Below are positions 18,712 to 54,929 of a stretch of 64,000 nt of DNA, one piece after another. The notes beneath the pieces are model-generated. The model ran no database searches. It was given only the letters and a program-made list of their open reading frames with translations, and was not told the DNA's origin. The DNA comes from Candidatus Hydrothermarchaeales archaeon (GTDB taxonomy: Archaea > Hydrothermarchaeota > Hydrothermarchaeia > Hydrothermarchaeales > JAZGAD01): positions 1-64,000 of the forward strand of contig JAZGAD010000053.1 of assembly GCA_036444275.1 (NCBI GenBank). The letters are read 5' to 3'. Position numbers and translations under genes: made by a program. Position 1 is the first letter of the stretch. Each line of letters opens with the position of its first letter.

Positions 18712-18734
18712 CCCACCGGAGGAAGCATTTTATT

Positions 18735-19832: not shown

Positions 19833-19846
19833 ATCTCCACCTCTAT

Positions 19847-20746
19847 TTAGCTCATTAAGATTATTGATGAGACTAAGAACAATACCGAAGAGATGTTCAC
19901 AAGCCTTAGTGCTCTGCCAATATGCTCCCTTCGGAGTTCTGCATTCCCATCTCCAAGTCGGTAGTAACCTATTTTCTCCAGCTGCACGCCTAAGGCACCG
20001 GCAAGGGCACTCATGGCATGCCCTGAGTTCGGACTAAGGGTCTTCTTCCTATCTCTCAGGAATATCTTCGCGCTGCCCTTCCAGTTCTCGCCGAGCAGGA
20101 TAGAAGATAGCAGAATCAATAAGGAGGTTATACGAGCCGGGATATAGTTGAGGACATCGTCAAGTTTCGCTGGGAAGAACCCGATGTTTGAATATCCCTT
20201 TTTTTTGTACCCTAGCTCCGAGTCCAGTGTATTCACTGCTCTATAAAAGACAGCCGCCGCTACACCAAGCGCAGGTCCTAAAATGCTCCCTACGACAAGG
20301 TAATAGAACAATGGTGCTACAATGCCATCTACGCTGCTGTCCCCTATGGATTCTACAGCTGCAGAAATCACATGTCCCTCGTCAAGAGTGCCAGTATCTC
20401 TCCCCACCATCTTTGAAACCGCCTTCCTCGCACGCTCTAGATCGTTTTGAATGCATTTAGATACTTCCTTAGCATGCTCCGAAAGGGACCGCCATGCGAA
20501 CTGGAGCTTGAGTATCCAGGCTGCAACTACGACGTTGGTGACTGCTACCAACGCATAAGCAGTGAAGGAAAAAGGTAAGGCAACTGCCAAGAGGATAAGC
20601 ACGCCGTAAATCCTCCTATCGCTAGTATACGGCCTCAGAAGACTGGTCAATCTTCCCATCCACACAGTAGAGTGAAACCTTCTAGGCTCTCCTACAAGCC
20701 AGTCAGCTAGCAACGCTAGTAATAAAATCTGAAACAAGGGCGTCAT
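19847..20746 (-). CDS. cbiB: Adenosylcobinamide-phosphate synthase
   Basis: VGRDT, AVES, YRAVNTLDS, SPNSG. Confidence 0.92.
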   Translation of the reverse strand: MTPLFQILLLALLADWLVGEPRRFHSTVWMGRLTSLLRPYTSDRRIYGVLILLAVALPFSFTAYALVAVTNVVVAAWILKLQFAWRSLSEHAKEVSKCIQNDLERARKAVSKMVGRDTGTLDEGHVISAAVESIGDSSVDGIVAPLFYYLVVGSILGPALGVAAAVFYRAVNTLDSELGYKKKGYSNIGFFPAKLDDVLNYIPARITSLLILLSSILLGENWKGSAKIFLRDRKKTLSPNSGHAMSALAGALGVQLEKIGYYRLGDGNAELRREHIGRALRLVNISSVLFLVSSIILMS

Positions 20747-22213
20747 TTACATCAGCCACCCTTCTATCATATCTATCTCTATGCTCTCAGACACAGTGCT
20801 CGCTGCTCTTGTAATACTCTTCAGCCATGCATCCCTTACATCCACATCTCGCGGCGCTGTTTTCCCTGAATCTAAGCCTGCGAAGAAGGCCTTCCTGAAC
20901 CCAGGTGAGTCGAAGATGCCATGGAGATAGGTCCCGAAGACCGTGCCCTCGCGATTCATTGCTCCATCAACTCTGCCACTCAAGTCAAGTAACGGCTGGG
21001 CGTTACTCCCTAAAATGGTCTTTCCCATATGTATCTCGTATCCAGCTACACTCTCGCCAGCAGCAGCACGCAAGAATCCATAGTCTGCTAGAACCTTCCC
21101 CTCCACTTGCTTTGTCACTTTCCGGTATTCCTCGAACCTAGTTTCCACATCTAATAATCCAAGGCCTTCTAGTTCGCCGTTGCCTTCTATCCCATTATCT
21201 ATGATGCGCTTCCCCAGGATCTGGTAGCCTCCACATATCCCTATTATTGGAATGGTACCTGCCAGGCTCTTGAGTTTATCCGCAAAGCCCTTTTCCCGGA
21301 GCCACTTCAAGTCCTCCATGGTATTCTTGGTCCCAGGAATTATAATACCCTCTGGTCTGCCTAACTCCGACGCCTCTGCGACGTATCTAACCCTAGCGCC
21401 ATCGTAGGCAAGAGGATCGAAATCTGTGAAATTAGATATCCTGGGAAGCCTTATCACAGCTATATCCACACCATTGTTTGCCGAGTGTTCTTCTAACGAG
21501 AGAGAGTCCTCCCCCGGAAGCTCAAGGTCAGTGATGTAGGGTATCACGCCGAGCACCGGTATATGGGTCTTATTTTCTATCATCTCCAAACCTGGGTTAA
21601 GGATATTCACGTCCCCTCGGAACTTGTTGATGACAACGCCTTTGACCCTGTGTTTATGCTCAGGCTTCAAAAGCTCGACTGTTCCATAGATGCTCGCAAA
21701 TACCCCTCCGCGATCTATATCTGCGATGAGTATCACCTCTGCATCAGCCATATCTGCAATACGCATGTTGGCTATGTCGCAGTGATAGAGATTTATCTCG
21801 GCAGGGCTTCCGGCGCCCTCGATGATTATAAGCTCGTACTCTCGCTGCAGCGTTTCTAGGGCGTCGCCCACTATCTCTAGTCCTTCTTTTAAGGCGAACT
21901 TTTCGTAGTAGTCCCTAGCATCTATCTCGATGTATGGGGAGCCATTCACTACAACCTGCGATGTGCTGTCTCCTTTGGGCTTTACTAGAATGGGATTCAT
22001 CTCTGGTGTCGGTTCTATTCCAGCGGCTAGGGCTTGAAGAGCCTGTGCCCTGGATATCTCCTTCCCGTCTCTAGTAACGAAGGAGTTCAACGAGGTGTTC
22101 TGGGCCTTAAAGGGCGCCACTTTATACCCCTTGTCGGCAAAGACCCTGCAGAGTGCCATAGCGAGAAAAGATTTCCCGGAATAAGAAGCCGTTCCCTGCA
22201 CCATCAGATTCAT
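20747..22213 (-). CDS. cbiP: Cobyric acid synthase
   Basis: GTASYSGKS, PFKAQN, EGAGSPAEIN, GICGGYQ, GTYLHG. Confidence 0.95.
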   Translation of the reverse strand: MNLMVQGTASYSGKSFLAMALCRVFADKGYKVAPFKAQNTSLNSFVTRDGKEISRAQALQALAAGIEPTPEMNPILVKPKGDSTSQVVVNGSPYIEIDARDYYEKFALKEGLEIVGDALETLQREYELIIIEGAGSPAEINLYHCDIANMRIADMADAEVILIADIDRGGVFASIYGTVELLKPEHKHRVKGVVINKFRGDVNILNPGLEMIENKTHIPVLGVIPYITDLELPGEDSLSLEEHSANNGVDIAVIRLPRISNFTDFDPLAYDGARVRYVAEASELGRPEGIIIPGTKNTMEDLKWLREKGFADKLKSLAGTIPIIGICGGYQILGKRIIDNGIEGNGELEGLGLLDVETRFEEYRKVTKQVEGKVLADYGFLRAAAGESVAGYEIHMGKTILGSNAQPLLDLSGRVDGAMNREGTVFGTYLHGIFDSPGFRKAFFAGLDSGKTAPRDVDVRDAWLKSITRAASTVSESIEIDMIEGWLM

Positions 22214-22536
22214 AAAGCACCTTCCATACCAGCTATTTTCAACCTGAGGTTGGCGATAGCATCCTTATCCACTCCTTTAAGGTCTCTTATTCCTTCTAAG
22301 ACTGTCTTTGCGGTTTTCTGATGGTGAATCCATGTGCAGTCGATGCAGCTCCAGACTTCATTGCGTGTCTTCTTGCTAATCTTTAGCTTTCCACCTGTAG
22401 AGGTATCTAAACAAGGGTAGAATGGGCAATAGCACCATGTGCAGTCCTGGCCCTCGAAGTGACAGGGGTAGTAGTCACAGTCCTTATCACTCCCCTTGAG
22501 TTCAGAGATAGCCCATATTTCAGTCGTTTTAGTCAC
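22210..22536 (-). CDS. Cysteine-rich small domain protein (cob-associated)
   Basis: CDYYPCH...DCTWCYCPFYPC...WSCIDC..H. Confidence 0.8.
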   Translation of the reverse strand: MTKTTEIWAISELKGSDKDCDYYPCHFEGQDCTWCYCPFYPCLDTSTGGKLKISKKTRNEVWSCIDCTWIHHQKTAKTVLEGIRDLKGVDKDAIANLRLKIAGMEGAL

Positions 22537-23594
22537 TTCAACACCTTTTTCAACTCTCCCAGTAGAATGAAGTTCTCCTCCCTACTTCTAACCGATATCC
22601 TAGCGTGGTACTCGTCTAGGCCATGGAAGGAAGCGCAGTCCCTGATCAATATCCCCTTGTCTATGAGCTTTTTTCTCAGTTCAGCAGCAGTAACCTCAAA
22701 GTGCCTTAGATTAAAGAGGAGGAAGTTCGCCTCTGAGCAGTAGACCTTCAACTCCAATCTGGAAAGCTCATCATAGAGGAGATCCCTCTCCATGCGAATG
22801 AATTCTCTAGATTTCCTAGCAAAATCGTCGTCTTGTAGCAACTTCAGGAGGGCAACCTGAGCAAGAGCGTTTACATTCCATGGCACCCTCACCCCCTCCA
22901 TTTTTGCTATGAGTTCTTCATCAGCTACACCATAGCCAATTCTCAAGCCAGGTAAGGAATAGAATTTGGTCATAGAGCGGAGTACGAAGAGGTTGGGATA
23001 TCCTCTTATCTTGCTTGATGCACTCTCCAAATCAGTGAATTCGATATAGGCTTCATCTAGGAAAAGGAGTATACCTCTCTCTAATGCTTCCTTCATTATT
23101 GCATCGAGGCCCTTTATTGTTTTCCCAGTGGGATTATTCGGATTGCACAGGAAGACAGCTCTAGTGTTATCTCCGAATTCTATATCCTTATGCGAGACTT
23201 CGAAGTCTCTCTCCTTCCCCCCATACACCCTCTTAATGATAGCTCCCTCTGCCTCGCTCCATAAGCCATATTCTGAGAAGGTAGGCTCCAATATGAGTAC
23301 TTCATCTTCTTTTCTGAGGAAAGCTTCACAGAAGTTTTTAATAAGTTCCGTTGACCCGTTGCCCAATGTTATATTCTCTGGTTCTAGTCCTAGGTGTCTA
23401 GAAAGGACGGCCTTCATCTCCTTCCCATCGGGGTCTGGGTAATAACCAATTCTCCATAGCTCCTTTTTGATGGCTTCTACAGCGCTTTTCGGCGGGCCAA
23501 GAGGATTGACATTGGAACTGAAGTCTATAACAGGAAAATAGTCCCAGACATCCCCTCCATGCACTCGCTTTTGAAGCTGGATTCTAAGGGCCAT
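22533..23594 (-). CDS. cobD: L-threonine-O-3-phosphate decarboxylase
   Basis: HGG, DFSSNVNPLG, NPNNPTG, RSMTKFYSLPGLRIG. Confidence 0.9.
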   Translation of the reverse strand: MALRIQLQKRVHGGDVWDYFPVIDFSSNVNPLGPPKSAVEAIKKELWRIGYYPDPDGKEMKAVLSRHLGLEPENITLGNGSTELIKNFCEAFLRKEDEVLILEPTFSEYGLWSEAEGAIIKRVYGGKERDFEVSHKDIEFGDNTRAVFLCNPNNPTGKTIKGLDAIMKEALERGILLFLDEAYIEFTDLESASSKIRGYPNLFVLRSMTKFYSLPGLRIGYGVADEELIAKMEGVRVPWNVNALAQVALLKLLQDDDFARKSREFIRMERDLLYDELSRLELKVYCSEANFLLFNLRHFEVTAAELRKKLIDKGILIRDCASFHGLDEYHARISVRSREENFILLGELKKVLK

Positions 23595-23646
23595 GAAACC
23601 TACTTGATAAGAGATTTAAATAACTCACCGATTAAGATAATATTTG

Positions 23647-23662
23647 TTAGCCTAAGTAGTAA
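23647..23662. promoter_or_regulatory. Putative cob-regulon operator TTAGC-N6-AGTAA
   Basis: Begins 53 bp upstream of the cobD ATG, beyond the TATA (minus-strand TTTAAAT near 23614-23621). Confidence 0.65.
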
Positions 23663-23746
23663 TGAAAATCGTTTTTCTATATTTCTGCAACATCATGCCC
23701 AAGATATGCGATTATGGTTACAAAGTAGCATGTTCGCACTATGATG

Positions 23747-24520
23747 TCATACGTGAGTTTGCGCCTTCGACTCTCTAAGCAACCAACTCAAGACACCTGA
23801 GTAATCCTGTGTAATCTCCCCATAATCGATCACCGGCCGCTTAATCACTACCGCATGTATCCCCAACTCCAAAGCAGCCATCACCTTATCTTCAGTGCCA
23901 CCTGTAGACCCGCTTTCCTTCATTACTAGGACATCAGCACAGTATTCCTTGAGAAACGCAACATTGAGCTCGTGACTAACAGGCCCCTCCATAGCTATTA
24001 TGTCGTTGGGCGTTAAGCCCAAATCCAAGCAGATTCTTAGTGCGTTTTCAGAGGGCAAAACTCTAGCTACCACTCTTCTTTCGCCCACAGCATTCATAAA
24101 TGTTGCAAGGTTATTTGTGCCAGCTGCATAGAAGATCACTTTTCCCCAGTCTGCAGCTATCTTTCCAGCTTCATTGAAGTCCTCAGCTATATGTATCAAT
24201 TCAGATTTAGGCAGCTTAGCCGCCTTCCGCTCAAACCTTAGATATGGAACAGCCGATTTCCGGCATGCCTTAATGGCATTCTGTGAGGCAGTTGCGGCGA
24301 AGGGATGCGTGGCATCCACAACTCCTGTTATAGCCTTTTCACCGAGGAATTCCATCATTTGTTGCAGGTCCATGGATCCTACGACTTCGTCAGCTCCAGC
24401 CGCCCTCACAAGAGTGGCCCCATACTCAGTCACAGCGCTGGCTACAACGCTATATCCTTTCTCTTTAAGGAGCTCTACAAGTTCCTTTCCCTCCCTCGTA
24501 CCTGAGAGCACCCAGATCAT
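23747..24520 (-). CDS. cbiJ: Cobalt-precorrin-6A reductase
   Basis: GTREG, DATHPFA, KESG..GG..K. Confidence 0.9.
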   Translation of the reverse strand: MIWVLSGTREGKELVELLKEKGYSVVASAVTEYGATLVRAAGADEVVGSMDLQQMMEFLGEKAITGVVDATHPFAATASQNAIKACRKSAVPYLRFERKAAKLPKSELIHIAEDFNEAGKIAADWGKVIFYAAGTNNLATFMNAVGERRVVARVLPSENALRICLDLGLTPNDIIAMEGPVSHELNVAFLKEYCADVLVMKESGSTGGTEDKVMAALELGIHAVVIKRPVIDYGEITQDYSGVLSWLLRESKAQTHV

Positions 24521-24523
24521 TGC

Positions 24524-25261
24524 CTATCCCTTCTTAGGGTAGCCCCTAGGCGTCACTATTTTCCCGTTATGGATAAAGCTCTCAGAATTCCCTATAATTA
24601 TCGTGGTAAACATATCCACTTCAGGCTCCAGCATCTCGCCTAGGGTAGTTACCTTCACTTTCTCTCCCTCCCGCATAGCATTCTTCACTATGCCCACTGG
24701 AGTATCACTTGCTCTGTACTTCCGTAGAAGCTCAACGGCTTTTTTCAACTGCCACTCCCGTCCCTTACTCTTTGGATTATACAAGACTATGACGAAGTCG
24801 GCCTCAGCGGCACATACGAGTCTCTTCTCTATAGCCTCCCACGGCGTCAAGAGATCACTCAGGCTGATGACAGCATGATCATGTCCTAAAGGAGCACCTA
24901 GGAGAGCGGCTGCAGCATTGGCAGCGGCTACACCAGGTATTATCTCTACGTTAACCGCTAGGTTGGAGTCCCGCATATACTCGAGGAGCGCACTCCCCAT
25001 AGCATACACCCCGGGGTCCCCGCTACTTACCACGGCTACATCATCACCAGCGAGCGCCCTATCCACCGCTATCCTCGCCCTATCACTCTCATGCCCCATA
25101 CCCATAGAGACCACATCCTTACCGCGTAGAAACTCGGATAGCAGCTCGATATAGCCTTTATAGCCCACTACCACCTTCGCTCTCTCCACCGCCTCTACCG
25201 CGCGATAAGTCATATGCGCCTTGCCCCCGGGACCGATGCCTACTAAGAAGATCTTTCCCAC
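24524..25261 (-). CDS. cbiH: Cobalt-precorrin-3B C17-methyltransferase
   Basis: GIGPG, SSGDPGVY, ISLSDLLTPW, LYNP, TPRGY. Confidence 0.93.
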   Translation of the reverse strand: MGKIFLVGIGPGGKAHMTYRAVEAVERAKVVVGYKGYIELLSEFLRGKDVVSMGMGHESDRARIAVDRALAGDDVAVVSSGDPGVYAMGSALLEYMRDSNLAVNVEIIPGVAAANAAAALLGAPLGHDHAVISLSDLLTPWEAIEKRLVCAAEADFVIVLYNPKSKGREWQLKKAVELLRKYRASDTPVGIVKNAMREGEKVKVTTLGEMLEPEVDMFTTIIIGNSESFIHNGKIVTPRGYPKKG

Positions 25262-26247
25262 TGGTAATCCTCCTCTGCTATCGCGATAGTTACTCCTGCA
25301 AATTTCGTCTTCCCTTGGATAAGCTTAGCTCCTTTCCCCGCTAGTACTGCACTCGGCTCGCATACTGCTGAAACACCCACCTTTGCTTTTACTTCTCTAG
25401 AGCCTTTGAATAAGCCTTCATTCTCCCTTATCAGCTCTGAACTCACCGGCAGTAAAGGCACTGCAAGCGCATGTGCCGCCTTTACTATGCCTCTCTCACC
25501 AGCTTTAAAATCAGCTGTGGCTAAGGCGGCTATGCTACCCATACTCAGCTCTGCAGTCTCGAAGGACTGAGCAATAGCATCCAGCACAGTTTTACTACTT
25601 ATCCCCTTTTTTGCACCGATACCTACCACTAGGTTCCTGGGCCTCAGTACCGCCCTCGGTTGTTTTGTCTCTCCATAGATCTTGTTGGTTATGATCACTA
25701 AGGCGTCGAAGTCGTTGGGGGAGTCGCAGATAGACATATTTCCTGACAGGTGCAGACTCAAATTAAAGTTTGAATCCAGATCAATGTGGACACCAACCTC
25801 TTTGTCGTTGACTATCGCGGCATTCACTTCTTTCAACTGGGATTCCTCATCGATTACTAGTTTATACATACGTGCTATGTCTTCTACACTCGGCTTTCCC
25901 TGGACATCTGTAGCTGTAGTTATAACCGGATCAGAGCCTAGATGCGCTGCTATCTCTCTGGTTAGTTCGTTAGCCCCTCGATGCCCAGACAGAACGCTTA
26001 TAACGTGTCTGCCCTTCTCGTCTACTGCTACGACAGCTGGATCGCTTCTCTTGTCACTTATAAGCCCCGAGATAGTCCTTACAACTATACCCAAAGCCAT
26101 TACAAAGACCAAAGCATCGTAGCTTCTAAACGCCTCTTCGACTAACCTAGGGGAGAAATTAGAGAGCTTTGCATCACCTAGAGCCTCCGTAATCCTCTGG
26201 GCTGTCTCCCGTCCGTGTTTCGTAACTGCAAAGACAGCTATCCTCAT
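25243..26247 (-). CDS. cbiG: Cobalt-precorrin-5A hydrolase
   Basis: MALGIVVR, DPAVV, SGH..GAN, VITTATD, VCEPSA. Confidence 0.9.
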   Translation of the reverse strand: MRIAVFAVTKHGRETAQRITEALGDAKLSNFSPRLVEEAFRSYDALVFVMALGIVVRTISGLISDKRSDPAVVAVDEKGRHVISVLSGHRGANELTREIAAHLGSDPVITTATDVQGKPSVEDIARMYKLVIDEESQLKEVNAAIVNDKEVGVHIDLDSNFNLSLHLSGNMSICDSPNDFDALVIITNKIYGETKQPRAVLRPRNLVVGIGAKKGISSKTVLDAIAQSFETAELSMGSIAALATADFKAGERGIVKAAHALAVPLLPVSSELIRENEGLFKGSREVKAKVGVSAVCEPSAVLAGKGAKLIQGKTKFAGVTIAIAEEDYQWERSS

Positions 26248-27018
26248 CTAAAGTTCCTCTTTTTTTGTCCTGAAACTGTGCTCGAATTCCCCAGAGTATA
26301 GTCTGGACCTCTTATCTTTAGCACTCAAAAAATCCCCAACCAATATAATGGCAGTCTTATTTACTCCCGCGGCTTTCACCTTGCTGGCAATATCGCTCAG
26401 CTTTCCAGTTATGATCTTCTCATCCTTCCATGAAACCCTGTAGACAACAGCAACTGGAGCTGCGCCTCCATAGCCCCTCTTCAGCTCCTCGACCGCTTCC
26501 TCGATCATATGGGCACTAAGAAAGACGCCCATGGAGCACCGATGCCTAGCCAGTTCTCCCAGCTTCTCCTTTTCAGGCACACTTGTCCTGCCAGCTAGAC
26601 GAGTGATTATCAAGCTTTGAGATACATCCGGAACCGTATATTCTCTCTTCAGAGAAGCCGCAGCCGCAAAGATGGAGCTCACACCAGGTATGACCTTATA
26701 GTTGATTCCTTCCTTCCTTAACAGTGCCATCTGCTCCTGTGTAGCGCCGTATAAGCTTGGATCCCCGCTGTGCAGCCTAGCCACTACTTTCCCCTCATTT
26801 GCAGCTTTCTTGATGATCTTAAATATCTCTTCCAGGGTAAGCCCAGCGGAGTCATAAAGCTCTGCACCTGTCTTAGCGTATTTCAGAATCTCTGGATTTA
26901 TGAGGGAGCCGGCATAGACGACGACATCAGCTCTTTCCAAAATGGCTTTTGCCTTCAGAGTTATTAGCTCAGGGTCTCCTGGCCCAGCTCCTATTATGTA
27001 GACCGTCATTTGGTGCAC
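26248..27018 (-). CDS. cbiF: Cobalt-precorrin-4 C11-methyltransferase
   Basis: GAGPGDPELIT, RLHSGDPSLYG, SRLY...F.H. Confidence 0.93.
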   Translation of the reverse strand: MHQMTVYIIGAGPGDPELITLKAKAILERADVVVYAGSLINPEILKYAKTGAELYDSAGLTLEEIFKIIKKAANEGKVVARLHSGDPSLYGATQEQMALLRKEGINYKVIPGVSSIFAAAASLKREYTVPDVSQSLIITRLAGRTSVPEKEKLGELARHRCSMGVFLSAHMIEEAVEELKRGYGGAAPVAVVYRVSWKDEKIITGKLSDIASKVKAAGVNKTAIILVGDFLSAKDKRSRLYSGEFEHSFRTKKEEL

Positions 27019-27710
27019 CTGATTATGATCATAGAGAAGTAGTCTATCTCCTTCCCACTCATCTCATCCAGCGTGGCTGAATAATAGCCCTTGCTACCAC
27101 ATCTACTTAGGTAGATAGCCTTCTCTTTAAGGCCATGCTCCTCTAGTGTATGAAGTATCCTGTTAAAATTCCTGGAGACCTTCATTAGGACTATTGTATC
27201 AAGCACCTTAGAAAGTTCTCCCAGATTCTCAAGGCCGTAGCTGGCTGGCAGCACTGCTATCCTTTCATCCCCTTCGCCGAGAGGCATTTTCAGTTCTACT
27301 GCGCAGGCAGAGAGTGAAGTCACACCCGGCACTGCCTCTACCTCCACCTTTGGATGCCTTTCCTTCATTTTCCGCATGACATAGATGAAGGTGCTGTAGA
27401 AGAGGGGATCACCTATCGTAGGGAACGCTACATCCCTATCCTTCTCGAGTTCGGCGTATATTTCGTCTACAGTATTCTCCCAAGCTTCCTCCAATACTCC
27501 GGCATCTTTGGTCATAGGGAATTCAAGCTCTTTTATCTCAGCTTTCCCCTCCAATAGACCCCTCACAACAGATAGAGCTAGACTCTCCTTTTTCCCCTTG
27601 GATTTCGGTGCGAAGATTATGTTAACTGAGTTCAGTACCTTTAATGCCTTAGGGGTCACCAATTCTGGATCACCAGGGCCTACGCCCACGCCGTAGAGCT
27701 TGCCAGTCAT
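27006..27710 (-). CDS. cbiL: Cobalt-precorrin-2 C20-methyltransferase
   Basis: GVGPGDPEL, FPM, GDPLFYSTF, YFS. Confidence 0.92.
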   Translation of the reverse strand: MTGKLYGVGVGPGDPELVTPKALKVLNSVNIIFAPKSKGKKESLALSVVRGLLEGKAEIKELEFPMTKDAGVLEEAWENTVDEIYAELEKDRDVAFPTIGDPLFYSTFIYVMRKMKERHPKVEVEAVPGVTSLSACAVELKMPLGEGDERIAVLPASYGLENLGELSKVLDTIVLMKVSRNFNRILHTLEEHGLKEKAIYLSRCGSKGYYSATLDEMSGKEIDYFSMIIIRCTK

Positions 27711-27711
27711 C

Positions 27712-28281
27712 TCACCGCCTCACATCGATTACGAATACAGGATTATGAGCCTTCATGATCATCTTATCACCGACCGTCTCACTCCTGCTTATAGATACCT
27801 GGGTGACGTTGAAATCTAGGTCAAGTGCCTGCAGCGTCGATAACGCCTTGCCGAGGGAATCTAAAGTCACGATGTTCACAACTATAATTCCCCCACGCTT
27901 CAGCCTCTCGATGCTCTTCCTTAAGATGCCTCCAATTTTACCACCGCTTCCACCTATGATTATCCTATCAGCTAGGGGGAGTTCAGCTAGTACGTCGGGG
28001 GCTTCTCTATTTATGATATCTACGTTTTTCACACCGAATATCTTCAGGTTCTTCTCTATTATTGGTATTCTGTCTGCATTTCTCTCAACGGCAAAGACTC
28101 TGCCACCTCTAGCTAGAAGGGCTGCCTCGACAGTAAGAGAACCGCATCCAGCGCCGATGTCGTAGATAATATCGAAGTCCCCTATCCTCGCCTTTGACAG
28201 GGTGACTGCCCTTACCTCCTGCTTAGTCATCGGAGCTCCTCCAATGAATTCCTCATCAGGTATGCCTAGGCTATGCTCCAT
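27712..28281 (-). CDS. cbiT: Cobalt-precorrin-6B C15-methyltransferase (decarboxylating)
   Basis: GIPDEEF, PMTKQEVR, DIGAGCGS; likely start ATG 28281. Confidence 0.9.
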   Translation of the reverse strand: MEHSLGIPDEEFIGGAPMTKQEVRAVTLSKARIGDFDIIYDIGAGCGSLTVEAALLARGGRVFAVERNADRIPIIEKNLKIFGVKNVDIINREAPDVLAELPLADRIIIGGSGGKIGGILRKSIERLKRGGIIVVNIVTLDSLGKALSTLQALDLDFNVTQVSISRSETVGDKMIMKAHNPVFVIDVRR

Positions 28282-28888
28282 CAAAGACCACCATGATACA
28301 GTTACCAGAGAAACTTTTTTTCGAGATATCCTCAAGGTTAGAATTAATAATCCTCTCCTCACTTCCAGAGAGGTCCTCGCAGACCGCTGCACTCCTGTTC
28401 CCTACGCCCGAACTTAAAAGGAGGCTCGCTATCCTGTCAGGCGTATATGTACTATCAGTCAAGATAACGGATTTACCTTCTATTATCCTCTCCGGCAGGC
28501 CCTTTGGGTCTCGCCCGTGAAGGCTTATGAAGCGTGCATCTTTCCATGATTCCTTTAGCTTGGCAAAGCAGAGTTGCATAGAACTTATACCCGGGATTAT
28601 CTCTACATCCTTTTCCTGGAAATTCTCTAGTACTACGTCTAGAATACTGTAGAAACCAGGATCGCCAGAGGTGAGGACTGCGACATCCTTATCTCCATTC
28701 TCTCTTATGAATTCAAGGACAGCATTTAGATCTCTGTCTATCACCATTTGCTTGGATTTAGATTGAAATAGGGACAACGCTTTCTTTCCACCAACCAATA
28801 CCTCGGCTTTATCGACTGCCGCTTCGGCTGCAGGGGTAAGAAAGTCCCTTGAGCCTGGTCCTATGCCTATGACAAATATCTTTCCCAT
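28271..28888 (-). CDS. cbiE: Cobalt-precorrin-7 C5-methyltransferase
   Basis: GIGPG, SGDPGFY, PGISSMQ, SLHGR. Confidence 0.9.
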   Translation of the reverse strand: MGKIFVIGIGPGSRDFLTPAAEAAVDKAEVLVGGKKALSLFQSKSKQMVIDRDLNAVLEFIRENGDKDVAVLTSGDPGFYSILDVVLENFQEKDVEIIPGISSMQLCFAKLKESWKDARFISLHGRDPKGLPERIIEGKSVILTDSTYTPDRIASLLLSSGVGNRSAAVCEDLSGSEERIINSNLEDISKKSFSGNCIMVVFDGA

Positions 28889-29976
28889 CGTGTCGCCCCA
28901 GTGAAATGCCTCCCAACTACTTCGCCCTTCAGGGATATCAAAGCCGTGCTTATGTCAATGCGATTATCTACGTACGTCATTGCTCTACTACTCACCTTCT
29001 CAGCTATAGAGTCAAATACCTCTGCGAGGTGATTCTCCTTCAAAATCTCTAGTGCTTCTTCAGTGGTGTTAGCACCGAGGACGTCTTTTATAATTTCTTC
29101 ACATGCTCCCATACGTGCTACGTGGGAAGCAATGGTCTTGAAGCCTCTTTCAGAAGCTTTACTATGCGTATAAAAGGCGCCTCCAGCCACCTTAGTCAGC
29201 TTGCCTAGGCCGCCTAGTATGAGTGCCCTTTTCACCTCTCTTGCTACGCATGCCTGGAGCATGAAGCCAATGAAGTTGCTGACTTGCACTATAGCGTCTT
29301 CTGGTATCCCTCTGCTCAAGGCGCTCTTCTCTCCTATCCTGCCCGGCGTTAGAACTATTTCATCGTAGCCCAATGCAAGGGCAACGTCTATCTGCGGCAG
29401 GAGGGAATCCCTTAATGCTTCTTCAGATCTAGGCTCAACTATGCCGGTAGTGCCCAGTATGGAGATGCCTTCCATGATCCCAAGGCGCTGGTTCATAGTC
29501 CTCTTCGCCAGTTCTCTTCCATTCGGGACAGAAATAGTGACCTCTATGCCTTCTCTTGGTAGAACCTTTGAGACCTCCCGCAGTATCATCTCCCTGGGTA
29601 CAGGGTTTATCGCGGGCTCGCCTACTTCTACTTGCAGCCCCCGTTTTGTTACCATGCCAATACCCTCGCCGCCTTTAAGCTCTATTCCGCTTTTTTTCAT
29701 TTTCACGGAGGCCCATATCTCTGCCTTATTTGTGACATCCGGATCGTCTCCTGCGTCTTTCACAACACAGCACTCCGCCTTAGCGTTACTGAGTCTCACT
29801 TTATTTATTTTCAATACAGCTGTCCCGCCAGCTGGCAGCTCGACCTCTACTTCATGCACTCTTTCTCCAGTGAAGAGCATGCTCGCAGCTGCCTTGGCTG
29901 ATGCTGCAGCGCAGGTGCCTGTGGTATAGCCGCGCTTCAGGGTCTTTCCATTTCTCTGTATATACTGCTCAATCAT
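28867..29976 (-). CDS. cbiD: Cobalt-precorrin-5B C1-methyltransferase
   Basis: GYTTGTCAAA, KDAGDDPDVT, AINPVP, GISILGTTGIV. Confidence 0.95.
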   Translation of the reverse strand: MIEQYIQRNGKTLKRGYTTGTCAAASAKAAASMLFTGERVHEVEVELPAGGTAVLKINKVRLSNAKAECCVVKDAGDDPDVTNKAEIWASVKMKKSGIELKGGEGIGMVTKRGLQVEVGEPAINPVPREMILREVSKVLPREGIEVTISVPNGRELAKRTMNQRLGIMEGISILGTTGIVEPRSEEALRDSLLPQIDVALALGYDEIVLTPGRIGEKSALSRGIPEDAIVQVSNFIGFMLQACVAREVKRALILGGLGKLTKVAGGAFYTHSKASERGFKTIASHVARMGACEEIIKDVLGANTTEEALEILKENHLAEVFDSIAEKVSSRAMTYVDNRIDISTALISLKGEVVGRHFTGATRWERYLS

Positions 29977-30593
29977 TATTCCTTTTTCTTCCCAGCAAGG
30001 TCCAGCAGGGCATTAAATATTGCAACTGCGACAGTGCTCCCGCCTCTATCACCCTTTACCACTATACTCGGGGTGCTGTATTCCAAAATCTGCTCTTTTG
30101 ACTCTCTCGCGCCAACGAATCCCACTGGAGCTGCAATGACAAAGGCAGGCAAGTTTCCTTCTTCAATCAATCTGCATAATTCAAAGAGCGCTGTAGGAGC
30201 ATTCCCAACTACTACGATATTATCCTGAAGTTCATTCTTGAAGAGATGAAAGGCAGAGCCTGCCCGTGTCTTACCAGTATCCTCTGCAAGGGCATAGACG
30301 TCGTTGCGGTCGATGAAACATTTTACTACACTACCATAGCTTTCTAGGGCTCGTGAGTTGATGCCTACTTTAACCATGTTCACATCGGTTATGACATTCT
30401 TCCCAGATCGTATCGCCTCTATTCCCTTTTCAACTGCATTTTTACTAAATACCACGAGATCAGCGAAGTCAAAGTCTGCAGTGGCATGTACCACCCTCTT
30501 GACGATCTCCCTCTCTGGAAATGGAGTACTACTTAACCTAGATTCGATTATCCTAAAACTCTCTCTTGCTATCTTCTCTGCCTCTGGAGTCAT
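29976..30593 (-). CDS. cbiC: Cobalt-precorrin-8 methylmutase
   Basis: RVVHATAD, GNAPTAL, PVGFVGARESK, GGS. Confidence 0.93.
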   Translation of the reverse strand: MTPEAEKIARESFRIIESRLSSTPFPEREIVKRVVHATADFDFADLVVFSKNAVEKGIEAIRSGKNVITDVNMVKVGINSRALESYGSVVKCFIDRNDVYALAEDTGKTRAGSAFHLFKNELQDNIVVVGNAPTALFELCRLIEEGNLPAFVIAAPVGFVGARESKEQILEYSTPSIVVKGDRGGSTVAVAIFNALLDLAGKKKE

Positions 30594-30988
30594 TTCAATG
30601 CCTCCTTTGCCCTGTCCACCACTACGTCAGCGAGGCGCTCATCTGCACCAATGTGTCGAGCATACAGTATTTCCACATCCTCTGGGATCTTTATCTTGCC
30701 ATAGCCAAACCCTGGAGACTCGCCCTCCTTCAAACCTAAGAGAATAGGTAAGTCCTCTGTAACATGCAGGCCAGGAAGCAGGAATAAGGGTACGATAATA
30801 ATCTTCTTGACACCTTCTTCCAATAAGGAATTTATTGTATCCTCCAGTGTGGGCTTCCAATGCTTCATATACCCGATGCGGATTTCTAACCCAGATTTTT
30901 CCCTAGCCTTCTTTGCTATCTCCTCGTAGATGCCCCGGCTCTCAGGAACCTTGCTGCCATGACCCACTATTATAACACACGTCTTCAC
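30590..30988 (-). CDS. cbiX: Sirohydrochlorin cobaltochelatase, small archaeal form
   Basis: GHGS and PLFL.PGLHVTEDLP; 132 aa. Confidence 0.85.
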   Translation of the reverse strand: MKTCVIIVGHGSKVPESRGIYEEIAKKAREKSGLEIRIGYMKHWKPTLEDTINSLLEEGVKKIIIVPLFLLPGLHVTEDLPILLGLKEGESPGFGYGKIKIPEDVEILYARHIGADERLADVVVDRAKEALK

Positions 30989-31022
30989 TGCGATTCAACC
31001 TTTGTTATACGTCAACGTCACA

Positions 31023-32384
31023 TCACACAGACAATGATAGACACTCTATACAGCGGTTGTTTTTCCGATTATTCTCGTCGATTTTTTTGACAGCATGCTC
31101 TGCCATCTTCCCGCTTGCAAGGATTGCCACGTCGATACCTCGGAGCGCAGCTGAGATGCTGGCATTCACTACATCTACATCATAGTTGCACTCTAGGTCA
31201 AGTTTTCTAACCACCGCCTTTGCAGATGTGCCCATTGCCGCTATCCTCCCTGGATTCATCTCTTTTATCTTGTCTCTGAGTTCATCTAACACAACCGCTC
31301 TTGAGCCGCCTTCTGCTGTACTCGGTATTTTAACCACATATATCCTGCCGGGTTGCGTTCTTATCTTCCCACCCAACGCAATTAATGCGATATCATCCCC
31401 TACCTTAGCGGAATACAACACCCTACCGAATGTGTCTGCATCTGCATCTTGCACCGCGTAGATTACTCCATCTCTTAATACAAGCCCAGCTTTATCACCG
31501 GATTTGAAATCAGTACTTGCTATAGCGTACCTGACGATTACATCGCTTTCTACCCCATCCACCAGATCCAAGACTGTTAGAGGGGTGTCTATCTTCTTCT
31601 CCTTCTTTGATACAATTCCACGTGCTTCGAAATCCCTGAAAGCCTGTACAGTAATAGGGGCATTTAGCTTAGCCTTTCGCAGGAGTTTCTCATCCTTGAA
31701 TATTTCTTCAGGCATGCCAGATGCCAATACTCTGCCCTCGTCTAGCACTACGACATTTTCTGCCCAACTTCCAACTGCATTAATAGAGTGAGTGGACAGT
31801 ATCACTGTGGTACCGTATTCTTTGTTAAGTTCGCTGAGGACACCTACGAGCTCTTCAGAGCCACTGGGATCCAGATTCGATAGAGGCTCGTCTAGCACTA
31901 GGATCTCAGAGCCCATAGCCAGTGCTCCTGCTATAGCTGCCCTATGCTTCTGGCCGGCGCTTAGGTTATGTGGTGGTCTATCTCGCAAGTGGTATATGCC
32001 CATCATTTTAAGAGAATCTGCAACCCTTGCTTCTACCTCACCTTCAGGCAGGCCTATGTTCCTAGGTCCAAAGGCAACGTCTTGATACACAGTAGGTGCA
32101 AAGAGCTGGTCATCTGGATTCTGAAAAACCATGCCTATCTCCCGCCTTATTTCATTCACGTTGGTCTTAGTGAGTTCTCGCCCATTAACAAATACATTAC
32201 CTGTAGTCGGAGTGTAGATGCCGTTAAGGCAGTAAAAAAGTGTTGTCTTACCGGCGCCGTTCGAGCCGAGGATGGCAGTGCGCTCACCCTTCTGAATCGC
32301 TAGCTCCAGTCCCTTAAGGGCTTGGGTCCCATCAGGATATGTATAGTGCAGGTCTAGTGTCTTGAGTGCTTCCATATTTACCAC
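31023..32384 (-). CDS. cbiO: Cobalt ECF ATPase with long C-terminal extra domain
   Basis: GSNGAGKT, FQNPDDQLF, LDEP, STH; extra region after about residue 265. Confidence 0.88.
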   Translation of the reverse strand: MVNMEALKTLDLHYTYPDGTQALKGLELAIQKGERTAILGSNGAGKTTLFYCLNGIYTPTTGNVFVNGRELTKTNVNEIRREIGMVFQNPDDQLFAPTVYQDVAFGPRNIGLPEGEVEARVADSLKMMGIYHLRDRPPHNLSAGQKHRAAIAGALAMGSEILVLDEPLSNLDPSGSEELVGVLSELNKEYGTTVILSTHSINAVGSWAENVVVLDEGRVLASGMPEEIFKDEKLLRKAKLNAPITVQAFRDFEARGIVSKKEKKIDTPLTVLDLVDGVESDVIVRYAIASTDFKSGDKAGLVLRDGVIYAVQDADADTFGRVLYSAKVGDDIALIALGGKIRTQPGRIYVVKIPSTAEGGSRAVVLDELRDKIKEMNPGRIAAMGTSAKAVVRKLDLECNYDVDVVNASISAALRGIDVAILASGKMAEHAVKKIDENNRKNNRCIECLSLSV

Positions 32385-33127
32385 TTATCAATAACTAACA
32401 GCACCGCGAAAAGCATTACAGAGACAGATCCTAGGGCGATGTCCTTAAAAGGAATTCTCTTGGCAGGCACATATATCCTGGAGCCCGGATGATAGCCTCT
32501 TGCGAGCATCGCAGTATATGAGCATCGTGCCTTTTCAATGGACCTAATCATAAGCATGCCGCTTAGGGTCGAGAAGTTTTCAATGCGCTTTCTAATGGAG
32601 AGGGTCTTGGAAAAAGCATTTCGTGCACTCATTGCATTGTGCAACTTTACGCTCTCGTCAGCGAAGAGGAATATGTACCTGAGCATAAGTGCTGTAAGGT
32701 CTATGAGCGTCCTCGGCAGCCTCAACCAGGAGAGAGCGTCCAGAAGAGAAGTCATCGGCGTAACTAAAGTTAGCAAGTTTAATAGGGAGGTCGCTGCTAG
32801 TACTCGGGTAAATATCAGCACGCCGAAAGAGACTCCTTCTAAGCCTTGCGCAAATATCACTCCACCCACTGCAAAGCCAGCGAATAATCCCGGAAACAGC
32901 ATCCTAGAGAGGTATCTCCAAGCTGGTATACCTGAAAAAAGCGCAAATAGGAAACATACCGCTGCTATAGACAGAGCGAAAATCCATCTTTCTAGAAAAA
33001 CCACTGTGAATATACCCAGACCGGCTACAACGAGCTTTATCCTTGCATCGATACCACATAGTCGTGCGTCATAGGAAGATTTGTCTACCTGTATGAGTTC
33101 TCTAACGCATTCTAGAGCATCAACCAT
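32378..33127 (-). CDS. cbiQ: ECF T component
   Basis: DARIK, LMLRYIF, AMSARN, AMLARGY. Confidence 0.88.
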   Translation of the reverse strand: MVDALECVRELIQVDKSSYDARLCGIDARIKLVVAGLGIFTVVFLERWIFALSIAAVCFLFALFSGIPAWRYLSRMLFPGLFAGFAVGGVIFAQGLEGVSFGVLIFTRVLAATSLLNLLTLVTPMTSLLDALSWLRLPRTLIDLTALMLRYIFLFADESVKLHNAMSARNAFSKTLSIRKRIENFSTLSGMLMIRSIEKARCSYTAMLARGYHPGSRIYVPAKRIPFKDIALGSVSVMLFAVLLVIDKW

Positions 33128-33233
33128 ACGCTCTCCTCCTTAGCAACACCTCCCTGCCGAACAGGAAACCGAGAAAAAACCCTGTTGTTGTCGCCAAGCC
33201 GTTGAGCACGTCTATGAGAAGCCATTCAAACAC
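33120..33233 (-). CDS. 37-aa single-TM protein not in the ORF track
   Basis: AGGAGG 7 nt before GTG; MFEWLLIDVLNGLATTTGFFLGFLFGREVLLRRRAYG*; overlaps the cbiN stop and the cbiQ start. Confidence 0.65.
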   Translation of the reverse strand: MFEWLLIDVLNGLATTTGFFLGFLFGREVLLRRRAYG

Positions 33234-33507
33234 TATGTAACCTCCTTATTTCTACTATAGATGTCCAGTAGTACCCGAATAATGCACCGGCAAGCAAACC
33301 TGCTAGGGCGAAGGCAATATTCTCTCCAGTGTTGTTTAGACCAATAGGGGTGCTCGGCTCACGGCCAGCAATTTCTGCTGCCATGTCTTCTACAGCGGCA
33401 TCTGTACCGCCAAGGTCTCCCTTTGCAGAACCCGCATATGCTCCTCCAATGATTAATGCGATCGTAAACAGCCACAGGATTGCGATATTCTTAATTATCT
33501 TGTCCAA
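33226..33507 (-). CDS. cbiN: CbiN-like small ECF component
   Basis: TM-GGTD-loop-TM ending ..GYYW; follows cbiM. Confidence 0.75.
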   Translation of the reverse strand: MDKIIKNIAILWLFTIALIIGGAYAGSAKGDLGGTDAAVEDMAAEIAGREPSTPIGLNNTGENIAFALAGLLAGALFGYYWTSIVEIRRLHSV

Positions 33508-34159
33508 CTATCTCACCCTTCTCTAATACGAATATATCGTGCCTCGTCGAGAGGTAGCTTATAGTCCAAGCAGTAAATCCAAATTCTACAGCCGCTAGCA
33601 CTATCTGTGTCGGGGCAAAACCCAGCATGAATATCCCCCAAAGGGTAACAACAGATCCCTCGCCGGCTAAGCTTAGAGCGAGTTCTGCAGAGGTCATAGT
33701 ATAAGTCGCAATATCCCCAATGAAACCAGCAGCTCCAGCAGCGATTGGCAGAGAAAAATTCAGCCTCCTAAGCACTTTGTATACAAGCAATCCTGAAAAC
33801 GCGCCGACAATGCCCATAGAAACAAGGTTCGCACCGAGCGTTGTTAAGCCGCCGTGAGCAAGAAACATGTGGAAAAATAATGCTATAGCACTTACTACGA
33901 CTGTTGGAAATGCGCCTACCAATATCGCCGCCATCGGTGTGCCGATAGGATGCGATGAAGATCCAGTTACAGGCACCGGAAAGTGCCATATAGAGATCAC
34001 GAAAACTGCTGCGCCCATAACAGCAAGCATAGGCATGTAGGCAGGATTCTTTTTCATCCTTCGTTGAATATCCCACAGGCCAACTGCCATGAATATCAGA
34101 GCAACTAGATACCATACAACTATCCACTTAAATGACAGGATGCCATCTGATATGTGCAT
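33491..34159 (-). CDS. cbiM: Cobalt ECF S component
   Basis: MHISDGIL N-terminus, GSSSHP, AHGGLTTLGAN. Confidence 0.93.
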   Translation of the reverse strand: MHISDGILSFKWIVVWYLVALIFMAVGLWDIQRRMKKNPAYMPMLAVMGAAVFVISIWHFPVPVTGSSSHPIGTPMAAILVGAFPTVVVSAIALFFHMFLAHGGLTTLGANLVSMGIVGAFSGLLVYKVLRRLNFSLPIAAGAAGFIGDIATYTMTSAELALSLAGEGSVVTLWGIFMLGFAPTQIVLAAVEFGFTAWTISYLSTRHDIFVLEKGEIVGQDN

Positions 34160-34211
34160 AGTCCTAAATCCTAGGAGGGCCTTATATACTGCATGTTTCT
34201 TGTAAGAATTG

Positions 34212-34227
34212 TTAGCCTTCTGGGTAA
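34212..34227. promoter_or_regulatory. Putative cob-regulon operator TTAGC-N6-GGTAA
   Basis: Begins 53 bp upstream of the cbiM ATG, beyond the TATA (minus-strand TATATAA near 34182-34188). Confidence 0.7.
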
Positions 34228-34268
34228 GATACGTTTCTAAAGTAAGTTTTATATTTAAGTAATATCTA

Positions 34269-34284
34269 TTAGCTAATTAGGTAA
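34269..34284. promoter_or_regulatory. Putative autoregulatory operator TTAGC-TAATTA-GGTAA
   Basis: 14/16 palindrome between the TATA (about 34247-34258) and the regulator ATG at 34298. Confidence 0.7.
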
Positions 34285-34297
34285 CAATGGTGGTGTT

Positions 34298-34804
34298 ATG
34301 TTCAAGACACTGAGCAGTAAAACTCGAAGAGAGATATTGAAGATTTTGGCAAAGCGAGAAATGCATATCTCAGGCTTGGCAAGGGAGCTGGGCATCTCTG
34401 TTCCGGTTGCTGCAAAGCACTGCAAGTTACTGGAGGAGAAAGAACTGGTCGAGAGGAAGAAGTTCGGGCGTACGCACGTGCTAAAGCTGCGGAGGGATAA
34501 GTTCAATATGGACTCGCTATACGACACCCTGGATATCTTCAGCGATACCTATAAGGTGACCCTCCCGAAGGGCGCCAATGTTATCGATGCTTTGAAGGAG
34601 GTGGCAGGTGTGACTGTCCAACGCGTAGGCGACAAGGAATTTGTTACTTCTGTTGACGGGGAAGAAGGATACTATATCTACGAGATCGACGGCAAGATAC
34701 CGAACGTCTCTATGGACAGGTTCGTGCTGAAGAAAAATTCTAACGTGAAATTAAAGAAATTGGTTCCGATGAAAAAGAAGGAGATAAAGATAAGGATAAA
34801 GTGA
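34298..34804 (+). CDS. ArsR-type wHTH regulator fused to a transcobalamin-like (DUF4430-type) beta-grasp domain
   Basis: FKTLSSKTRREIL...LARELGIS...H..LLE HTH; KGANVIDALKE...FVTSVDG..YYIYEIDGKIPNVSMDRFVL..N C-terminal domain. Confidence 0.8.
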   Translation: MFKTLSSKTRREILKILAKREMHISGLARELGISVPVAAKHCKLLEEKELVERKKFGRTHVLKLRRDKFNMDSLYDTLDIFSDTYKVTLPKGANVIDALKEVAGVTVQRVGDKEFVTSVDGEEGYYIYEIDGKIPNVSMDRFVLKKNSNVKLKKLVPMKKKEIKIRIK

Positions 34805-36374: not shown

Positions 36375-37046
36375 CTATACCCTTTTCACATAGATGGTGC
36401 TAACGATCTCCTCATCTAAGGCTAGCTCTGTCTCCCCTATTTTTACCACGTATGAGGGTTGCTTCTGATGCAGTTTGATTATACTTCCTGGGAGTACCCC
36501 CAAGCTGCTGAGGCGGTCCAACCTTGCATGTTCCTTTGGAACAATGAATACTATTCTCCCTTCCTGTCCAGGTGTAAGCTCCCCAAGAGGAAGCACTAGG
36601 GGCTTCACTTCTTTCTTGAACTTTGCGCAGCAATTAGCCCGCGGTATAGGCTTGTTGTGGGGGCACATCGGTGGGTGTCCCAGAAAGGTGCAGACGCTGT
36701 CAGTCACTTCAATGCTTAAGATGTGTTCAAATTTACAGGCCTCAGGATGTATATGCTTCGCCGGTAGTTCAAAGATTTCTGAAAGTAGACTTTCAGCTAA
36801 GCGGTGGCGCCTTATTATATCCTCTGCCTTTTTCTCTCCACTTTTGCTCAGAGTGACCCTGCCTTCTTGGATGCCTACAAGCCCCTTTTGTTCCATCTCG
36901 TTGAGCAGCTTGCTTGCATCCTCTTCTTCGCTTGACTTAACAATATACTCCAGCTCGTCCTTTTTCCGCTCCCTTGAGATCCATATAAGCTCTAATAGCT
37001 CATCAATACTCTGCTCGCTTATCCCACTGCTTTCCTTTCGTGTCAT
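36375..37046 (-). CDS. DtxR/MntR-family metalloregulator with C-terminal FeoA domain
   Basis: RRHRLAE, EACKFEH, CPH..PIP; RLSSLGVLPG FeoA motif. Confidence 0.88.
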   Translation of the reverse strand: MTRKESSGISEQSIDELLELIWISRERKKDELEYIVKSSEEEDASKLLNEMEQKGLVGIQEGRVTLSKSGEKKAEDIIRRHRLAESLLSEIFELPAKHIHPEACKFEHILSIEVTDSVCTFLGHPPMCPHNKPIPRANCCAKFKKEVKPLVLPLGELTPGQEGRIVFIVPKEHARLDRLSSLGVLPGSIIKLHQKQPSYVVKIGETELALDEEIVSTIYVKRV

Positions 37047-54838: not shown

Positions 54839-54929
54839 GGGAATGCAACCTAAAATCAGTCTTATATATTTATCTTCAGCAAATAATCTTTTCCCAGAAT
54901 TCCACCCAATTCTGTTAACTAGAAAGGTA

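Follow-up and report, generated by a model that had tools for sequence, protein, structure and literature searches.

A conserved palindromic operator linked to an ArsR-SLBB regulator and to cobalamin and cobalt genes in a Hydrothermarchaeales archaeon

Archaea make and use much cobalamin (vitamin B12), and how they sense it has been an open question. The CarH/LitR proteins of bacteria are MerR-family proteins with a B12-binding domain that serve as light sensors, not as controllers of B12 supply. For some archaea, Rodionov et al. are said to have described in 2003 a ‘CBL-box’, a putative recognition signal for a hypothetical B12 regulator, to which no protein is known to have been assigned. 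Here we analyse a stretch of 64,000 nt from a Candidatus Hydrothermarchaeales archaeon (contig JAZGAD010000053.1, hereafter ‘the window’; the assembly comprises 1.49 Mb in 61 contigs and is 81% complete), in which a gene for a small protein with an ArsR-type DNA-binding domain and an SLBB domain lies beside two cobalamin gene units, and in which a palindromic operator is found at the promoters of all three.

ArsR/SmtB proteins usually leave DNA on ligand binding, and the archaeal regulators SurR and TrmBL1 activate from sites upstream of the transcription factor B recognition element (BRE) and TATA box and repress from sites downstream. Fusions of an ArsR-type winged helix-turn-helix domain with an SLBB domain are predicted, in the consulted sections of a comparative study, to be one-component factors that respond to B12 or its precursors (Burroughs, Balaji, Iyer and Aravind 2007, PMC1796856). 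TFB-RF1 activates by recruiting TFB (PMC5937170). Literature searches returned no characterised archaeal B12 transcription factor and no experimental work on an ArsR-SLBB factor, and nothing on archaeal regulation was found in the consulted parts of PMC3509894 and PMC2667541.

We find that the 20-bp palindrome TRTTAnCC-N4-GGnTAAYA is a specific operator, linked to the ArsR-SLBB regulator family and to B12 and cobalt genes, and set in a conserved promoter geometry. On comparative sequence evidence it is very probably the operator of the adjacent ArsR-SLBB regulator, and the system is probably a protein-based counterpart, in this archaeon, of the bacterial B12 riboswitch.

Operator sites in the window and in related genomes

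An earlier note on this DNA had quoted four palindromic strings near the cobalamin genes, read them as one shared operator and, by proposing autorepression, took this to be a site of the adjacent regulator. All four strings occur where that note placed them, and three of the four are real sites, far beyond chance. The strongest, TATTAGCTAATTAGGTAACA (34267–34286, plus strand), comes after the TATA box of the regulator gene itself and stops 11 nt short of that gene's ATG at 34298; a homologous site was found de novo in the promoters of orthologues. The second, which reads TCTTACCCAGAAGGCTAACA in gene direction (34210–34229, minus strand) and contains the core 34212–34227, precedes cbiM. We scanned the genome with a matrix derived from the promoters of 24 orthologous regulators outside the window genome; these two sites took ranks 1 (score 19.96) and 2 (18.71) of 1,484,933 positions, and the next matches lie in coding DNA. 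The third site, CATTACTACTTAGGCTAACA in gene direction (23645–23664, minus strand; core 23647–23662), precedes the cobD-like gene. As the earlier note had measured, the cores at 34212 and 23647 each start 53 nt from their ATGs, at 34159 and 23594 respectively.

By the palindrome matrix alone the cobD-like site is modest, with a score of 11.33 that 50 genome positions equal or exceed, which taken by itself speaks against it. In the promoter module as a whole, the palindrome is followed by a third half-site and a TATA box. A 49-nt matrix of this module, derived from nine target promoters outside the window genome, ranked the cbiM promoter first (27.0) and the cobD-like promoter second (25.8) of 2.97 million positions. 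In addition, the orthologous cobD-like site in a relative from the same family (G001) scores 14.5 and has the same geometry (CATTACCTCATTGGCTAATA, half-site, then TATTTATG). Given the module rank and this orthologue, the site at 23645–23664 is real. The fourth string, put forward as a weaker palindrome at 23625–23640, did not survive analysis as such: it scores 5.5, its GATAA arm is part of the third half-site of the cobD-like promoter (TATTATCT, 23635–23642, minus strand; 99.9th percentile), and its TCACC arm, at the 82nd percentile, is not significant.

The exact string TTAGC-N6-GGTAA occurs three times in the assembly, two of these 57 bp apart in the spacer between cbiM and the regulator gene, and TTGTTAGC-N6-RGTAA occurs only twice, at the two claimed promoter sites. 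The pattern with one mismatch is not enriched within the window (6 observed against 3.7 expected; 16 of 100 shuffles reach 6), so the case rests on position and conservation, not on raw count. Several near or exact matches, in coding DNA or between unrelated genes, were judged to be chance (C23:10028, C30:3177, 51143 inside hemA, C40:8887 and C49:975). A further palindrome, TGTTAACTAGAAAGGTATTA (54913–54932, score 14.29), precedes by 75 nt the gene for a PCYCGC-domain protein, the first of a cluster that also includes an M29-like gene, the precorrin-2 dehydrogenase gene, hemA and hemB. This palindrome has no half-site and TATA module beside it (score -7.7, rank 5915) and is probably chance as well.

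The operator recurs with the regulator gene across related genomes. Full-length relatives of the regulator were found in 35 of 61 related genomes searched (36 counting a fragment at a contig end), genomes that are not independent of one another. Unsupervised Gibbs sampling over 29 orthologue loci with upstream sequence recovered the same 20-bp palindrome, at 19–32 nt before the start in 24 loci, at 44 nt in L021 and at 79 nt in L007; three loci lacked the motif. A site scoring at least 10 lies within 100 nt of the regulator start in 25 of these 29 order-level loci, as judged with a matrix trained on the same sites. A wider set comprised 79 species-representative loci, among them loci of Hydrothermarchaeota, Methanoperedens, Methanosarcinales, Methanocellales, ANME-1 and one Bathyarchaeia metagenome-assembled genome (MAG); in 44 of the 79 a site scoring at least 11 lies within 110 nt of the regulator start, compared with 1.1% of control windows. 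The pairing of regulator and operator is conserved across Hydrothermarchaeota, Methanoperedens, Methanosarcinales, Methanocellales and ANME-1.

These data bear on whether the motif could instead belong to another factor (a DtxR-like or a NikR-like protein) or be chance in AT-rich promoter DNA. A DtxR-like gene (36375–37046, Pfam), adjoining feoB, does lie about 2 kb past the regulator gene, the loose pattern is unenriched in the window, and the exact match at C23:10028 sits between unrelated genes. However, the motif stands in the regulator's own promoter at most orthologue loci whatever the neighbours, no DtxR-type (Fe_dep_repr) gene occurs among the 67 neighbouring open reading frames (ORFs) scanned at those loci, and the two top genome ranks were obtained with matrices trained elsewhere. 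Moreover, among the 40 best genome matches of the operator matrix none is near feoB or the DtxR-like gene, a DtxR-box matrix not having been run, and the motif tracks the ArsR-SLBB gene in place of accompanying a DtxR gene before iron or manganese genes, as it would in a DtxR/IdeR regulon. We also searched 37 genomes with a sequence-only covariance model of the operator, which scores at most 150 candidates per genome. It gave no match in G008, G009 and G025, three genomes without a full-length regulator match, although its negatives mean little because the search missed 34210–34229 in the window genome. Overall, we regard another factor or chance as highly improbable.

The three operators stand in a locus laid out as follows, all gene starts in this analysis being set by ORF logic. 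The first cobalamin unit (23747–34159, minus strand; Pfam scan) comprises cbiM, a cbiN-like ORF, cbiQ, cbiO, cbiX, cbiC, cbiD, corrin methylases, cbiG and cbiJ, and its gene spacing suggests a single transcript. After a gap of 152 bp follows the second unit (17986–23594, minus strand; Pfam and NCBIfam), with the cobD-like aminotransferase/decarboxylase gene, a PF04071 zinc-finger-like ORF, cobQ, cbiB, cobT and cobS. The name cobD-like rests on context, because the product scores almost equally as hisC (278.9 bits) and as CobD (274.2 bits). The regulator gene diverges from cbiM across a spacer of 138 bp.

An Rfam scan of the window found no family at threshold, the cobalamin riboswitch included, and that riboswitch (RF00174) has no match in the 81% complete assembly, while 7 of 14 control genomes match; nor was a BtuF-like gene found in this incomplete assembly. 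The CbiO ATPase (31023–32384, minus strand; 453 aa) carries DUF7839 at its C-terminus (residues 344–439, E 2.2e-16) and is about 190 residues longer than a normal CbiO, an extension that may be a regulatory add-on. Outside the window, contig C14 of the same genome holds a single ORF of 11,078 aa (25353–58589).

The regulator protein and its regulon

The regulator (34298–34804, plus strand; 168 aa) joins an ArsR-type winged helix (residues 5–52) to a DUF4430/SLBB beta-grasp domain (residues 92–152), an assignment that draws on Pfam, structural models, Foldseek and homodimer prediction. HTH_5 (PF01022) matches at 36.9 bits against a cut-off of 22, and NCBIfam HTH_metalloreg, at 49.3 bits, stays below its cut-off of 55. 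In a model of the whole protein, the N-terminal half matches ArsR/SmtB proteins (CzrA, SmtB and CadC) with Foldseek E-values of 1.7e-4 to 2e-3 and a target-normalised template modelling score (TM-score) of about 0.65–0.7, so that sequence and winged-helix fold agree on an ArsR/SmtB-type protein. The only invariant metal-type residues of this domain are H23 and H41. Neither an ArsR metal site (alpha-3N or alpha-5) nor an alpha-1/alpha-5 dimer was found, metal sites not having been inspected residue by residue.

Because the whole-protein Foldseek search returned winged-helix proteins only, the C-terminal domain was folded separately. Its 85 residues, modelled alone with 26 orthologues, reached a predicted local distance difference test score (pLDDT) of 91.9. 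In a Foldseek search with this domain, 16 of the 17 best PDB matches were a DUF4430 protein (3u7z) or the beta domains of transcobalamin, haptocorrin and intrinsic factor, with query-normalised TM-scores of 0.57–0.68, root-mean-square deviations of 1.8–3.0 Å and probabilities of 0.87–1.0, at weak E-values, for the best (3u7z, 5no0, 4kki, 4zrp, 2bb6 and 2pmv). Together with a DUF4430 (PF14478) match of 25.1 bits against a cut-off of 23.8, this beta-grasp fold, that of the beta domains of B12 carriers, identifies a DUF4430/SLBB domain. As a side observation, a gene divergent from the regulator in another genome (G043, L010 2100–3489) encodes a 463-aa protein that combines an alpha/alpha-toroid (SQHop_cyclase/prenyltransferase-like) domain with DUF4430, so that this archaeon has both domains of the complete transcobalamin architecture in one protein.

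The regulator is predicted to dimerise through its C-terminal domain. Homodimer prediction gave a score of 0.66, against 0.01 for the best control, a mark reached by 20 of 30 solved pairs and by 1 of 23 single chains; across runs, contact agreement was at least 82% and the partner pLDDT at least 78. The predicted interface (residues 79–103, 119–127 and 144–168) comprises the beta-grasp domain and the Lys-rich tail and lies outside the winged helix.

That the SLBB domain binds a corrinoid is inferred from context, namely from a regulon of B12 and cobalt genes. With the same operator and regulator, the effector could in principle be a metal, either cobalt or nickel, or else a precursor of the corrin (cobinamide or cobyric acid, for example). 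Many of the targets do encode metal transporters, namely CbiMNQ and, in L011, L012 and L024, NicO-like proteins whose genes accompany a NikR-like gene, and the reviewers of the 2007 paper cautioned that the ligands of helix-turn-helix-fused SLBB domains may differ (PMC1796856). Against this, the targets also include nrdD, late cob genes and the BtuF-like and CbiZ genes of salvage, a set that fits the regulon of a B12 riboswitch better than a metal regulon, and the sensor fold matches corrinoid-binding beta domains. Furthermore, the invariant residues of the sensor domain are L, G, Y, E, P and K, with no Cys/His-rich invariant columns. We therefore think a different effector unlikely.

The regulon itself was traced through the hits of the covariance search. 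Among 29 hit loci examined that were not autoregulatory, 15 lie in front of B12-related genes: cbiMNQ (6 loci), a BtuF-like binding protein, often after CbiZ (6 loci), and one locus each for the cobD-like aminotransferase (in G001, of the window's family), a cobN-like gene and nrdD. The remaining 14 fall within coding sequence or next to genes that are unrelated or unknown. Where the genome encodes the regulator, a site scoring at least 11 is present at 5 of 22 cbiM loci, compared with none of 8 in genomes without it; in one of the five, the window's own genome, the best site in the scanned stretch is the regulator's own operator at 34267–34286. A second cbiM copy bears a site in three further genomes, and in three the same geometry is seen with sites below the threshold. 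Since a strong site stands at only these 5 of 22 loci, membership of the regulon varies between genomes.

Strong operator sites also occur at L011 317–336 (22.7), L012 315–334 (15.6) and L024 195–214 (22.1), in genomes G013, G024 and G020, about 50–65 nt ahead of an operon that encodes a NikR_C-domain protein and a NicO/DsbD_2-like permease and immediately precedes the regulator gene; these operons may be a cobalt-uptake branch of the regulon. Many relatives (L157, L156, L170, L173, L177 and others) carry two copies of cbiM, one with a Shine-Dalgarno-like GGAGGTG, an MHIPDG start and no operator, the other leaderless-looking and with the operator module. The operator-free copy may be a nickel or constitutive paralogue. 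In five loci of genus g18 (L016, L017, L019, L025 and L028) an ORF of about 155–162 aa without a Pfam match, divergent from the regulator, ends near 1436, and the opposite flank of these loci holds nrdD. The likely ATG of this ORF in L016 is 22 nt from a TATA box that is itself 21 nt from the palindrome. This ORF looks like a further regulon member.

Promoter geometry and the direction of regulation

Target promoters align without gaps. Read in gene direction, they consist of the palindrome (20 nt), 2 nt, a left-half-like third half-site (8 nt), 11 nt, the TATA box, about 21–27 nt and the ATG. At cbiM, the third half-site TCTTACAA (34200–34207, minus strand), placed by alignment and at the 97.4th percentile of the left-half matrix, stands 2 nt past the palindrome on its TATA side, and the TATA box TATATAAG (34181–34188, minus strand) stands 21 nt past the palindrome, with 21 nt more to the ATG. 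At the cobD-like gene, the TATA box TTATTTAA (23616–23623, minus strand) lies 21–22 nt past the palindrome and 21 nt from the ATG. The third half-site reaches at least the 99th percentile in 16 of 21 promoters. Using a BRE/TATA matrix learned from the window genome's own promoters, we found that the best match begins 21 nt past the palindrome in 11 of 14 relatives' promoters, and 21–22 nt past it at both window promoters. The same layout precedes cbiM in two Methanosarcinales loci and is also present in three ANME-1 loci.

TATA-like words peak genome-wide at -40 to -26 from start codons, a range within which the two window boxes fall, 28–29 nt before their ATGs. The transcripts look leaderless, and the equal 53-nt distances are a consequence of a fixed module in leaderless promoters. 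Distal TATA-like words at 23674–23686 and 34248–34260 would put the sites at transcript starts with leaders of 50–70 nt; they are less likely promoters, because the proximal boxes fit the genome-wide peak and the conserved module.

The regulator's own promoter is arranged differently. Its TATA box, TTTATATTT (34248–34256, plus strand; BRE/TATA matrix total at the 94th percentile), precedes the palindrome, and a half-site-like element, AAGTAATA (34257–34264, plus strand), stands between them; for this element, the third-ranked module match (22.6), the evidence is weaker than for the other parts. The earlier note had placed this site downstream of the regulator's TATA box, and that position is conserved: a TATA-like word lies upstream of the palindrome in 21 of the 25 orthologue loci scored, at a gap of either -3 to 8 nt or 20 to 23 nt. 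In L003, L015, L021 and L026 no such upstream word was found within 60 nt, and in L007 one is also present 18 nt past it. At loci with a gap of 20–23 nt, a target gene is often transcribed divergently from the regulator, and at G017 cbiM and the regulator seem to share a single palindrome and a single near-symmetric TATA box. Separately, in an ANME-1 MAG (L098 1377–1396), one regulator paralogue is preceded by a target-type module (palindrome, half-site, TATTTAAG) and not by the downstream autoregulatory site.

We propose that a dimer of the one-component regulator would recognise the palindrome TRTTAnCC-N4-GGnTAAYA. At its own promoter the DNA-bound form would block polymerase recruitment, because the palindrome lies between TATA box and start codon; the conserved position supports the autorepression that the earlier note had suggested, and we hold it to be likely. 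At the cbiM and cobD-like promoters the same form, bound upstream of BRE/TATA, would most probably help TBP and TFB recruitment. The earlier note's placement of these sites upstream of the TATA box is borne out, with a conserved spacing of about 21 nt, as in archaeal upstream activating sites of the TFB-RF1, Ptr2 and EarA type, which keep a constrained distance to BRE/TATA; its step from there to activation holds less firmly, since an upstream position alone does not mean activation, although the geometry favours it. Activation is favoured because own and target sites contrast systematically in position and the spacing is rigid, and we rate it slightly above even. The ligand-free form would bind DNA, and a corrinoid on the SLBB dimer would release it, so that with plentiful B12 cobalt uptake and B12 synthesis would fall. 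For operator, regulator, autorepression and target activation taken together, the chances appear to us about even.

With the same operator and regulator, the sign at the targets could be the opposite, the protein acting as a corrinoid-dependent co-repressor at every promoter: its B12-bound form would sit on the palindrome, and BRE/TATA would be covered by another dimer, or by a subunit bound to the third half-site, shutting cbi, btu, nrdD and the regulator's own gene. Most ArsR-family proteins repress, and repressors are commonly arranged as in G017, divergent from their target and with one TATA box for both. The palindrome and third half-site nevertheless stand clear of BRE/TATA in the aligned target promoters of the order, a fourth half-site is not generally kept (median 82nd percentile in 21 promoters), and the contrast between a downstream site at the regulator's own gene and upstream sites at its targets goes unexplained under pure repression. 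We consider co-repression the less probable sign, though a serious contender.

Several observations weigh against activation by a ligand-free form. The third half-site extends in the direction of the TATA box and stops 11 nt short of it, a fourth half-site over the BRE reaches at least the 95th percentile in 4 of 21 promoters, all of them of BtuF-like genes, and G033 has a full second palindrome (11.9); a second dimer could thus occlude BRE/TATA. In G035, of another family and the exception to the clear spacing, a lone palindrome (L052 1502–1521) lies in a 46-bp spacer, 19 nt from the cbiM start and 7 nt from that of a divergent TP_methylase (corrin methylase) gene. This position is repressor-like, unlike the rest of the regulon, and with the third half-site reaching towards BRE/TATA it makes a repressing B12-bound form possible. 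With a TATA-only background, the BREs lie at the 10th percentile for cbiM, the 47th for the cobD-like gene and a median of the 58th for 12 relatives, so that target BREs are not clearly weak. A first comparison, in which cbiM and the cobD-like gene stood at the 0th and 3rd percentiles, had seemed to argue for activation through weak target BREs; that argument was rejected because its background had been selected partly on BRE score. Beyond the promoters, nrdD of the window genome has no operator site (best score 1.7), regulon membership varies as described above, the sensor-domain Foldseek E-values are weak (0.02–1.4), and a PDB sequence profile search with the C-terminal domain returned nothing relevant.

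The activating reading can be extended into a fuller picture, which we offer tentatively and at somewhat less than even chances. The ligand-free sensor would be a true activator acting from a tripartite site 21 nt from the TATA box, and the same dimer would repress its own gene; where regulator and target gene diverge and share one palindrome and one near-symmetric TATA box, as in G017 and as suggested for g18, it would act as the direction switch of a bidirectional promoter, which B12 at the beta-grasp dimer interface would reset.

Comparison with known systems

The CBL-box, reportedly found upstream of archaeal cobalamin genes in place of the bacterial B12 element, resembles the window motif in that location. 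ArsR/SmtB proteins such as CzrA, SmtB and CadC share the DNA-binding fold of the window regulator; the latter lacks the classical alpha-5 dimer helix and, as far as an inspection short of single residues goes, their metal site, and it is predicted to dimerise through its beta-grasp domain and Lys-rich tail. CarH/LitR are transcription factors with a corrinoid ligand, as is proposed for the window regulator, and differ from it in both the DNA-binding and the B12-binding fold.

The closest relatives are the ArsR-SLBB fusions predicted in 2007, which in the consulted sections of that paper have the same two domains, are euryarchaeal and lie beside cobalt and cobalamin genes; by Pfam and fold the window protein is a member. 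The same sections name no operator, regulon or mechanism (PMC1796856), whereas here the operator, a tripartite module, its two positions and its targets are defined. This analysis adds the two-operon layout, the validation of the weaker cobD-like site, the tripartite module with fixed spacing, and the position contrast.

In promoter logic the system resembles SurR and TrmBL1/Tgr, winged-helix proteins with sites upstream of BRE/TATA when activating and downstream of TATA when repressing. The upstream activators TFB-RF1 (PMC5937170) and EarA (PMC5512572) are related in kind. These proteins belong to other families and have other ligands, and the window system differs in its one and a half palindromes and fixed 21-nt spacing, with activation inferred from geometry. 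What the locus offers is a testable pair: a defined operator in a fixed promoter geometry, and a small regulator whose sensor domain resembles a domain of B12 carriers. If our reading is right, the transcobalamin beta-grasp domain would be newly used as an intracellular sensor, position-dependent activation and repression in archaeal transcription would gain a clean system, and a B12 biosensor part would be a possible use.

Finally, the gene set controlled is nearly that of the cobalamin riboswitch (RF00174): cobalt uptake, corrinoid uptake and salvage, cob/cbi synthesis and the B12-independent reductase nrdD. The riboswitch places an RNA sensor in the 5' leader of the transcript, whereas the window system has a DNA-binding protein and leaderless-looking transcripts and, if the reading holds, would be the protein counterpart of the riboswitch regulon.

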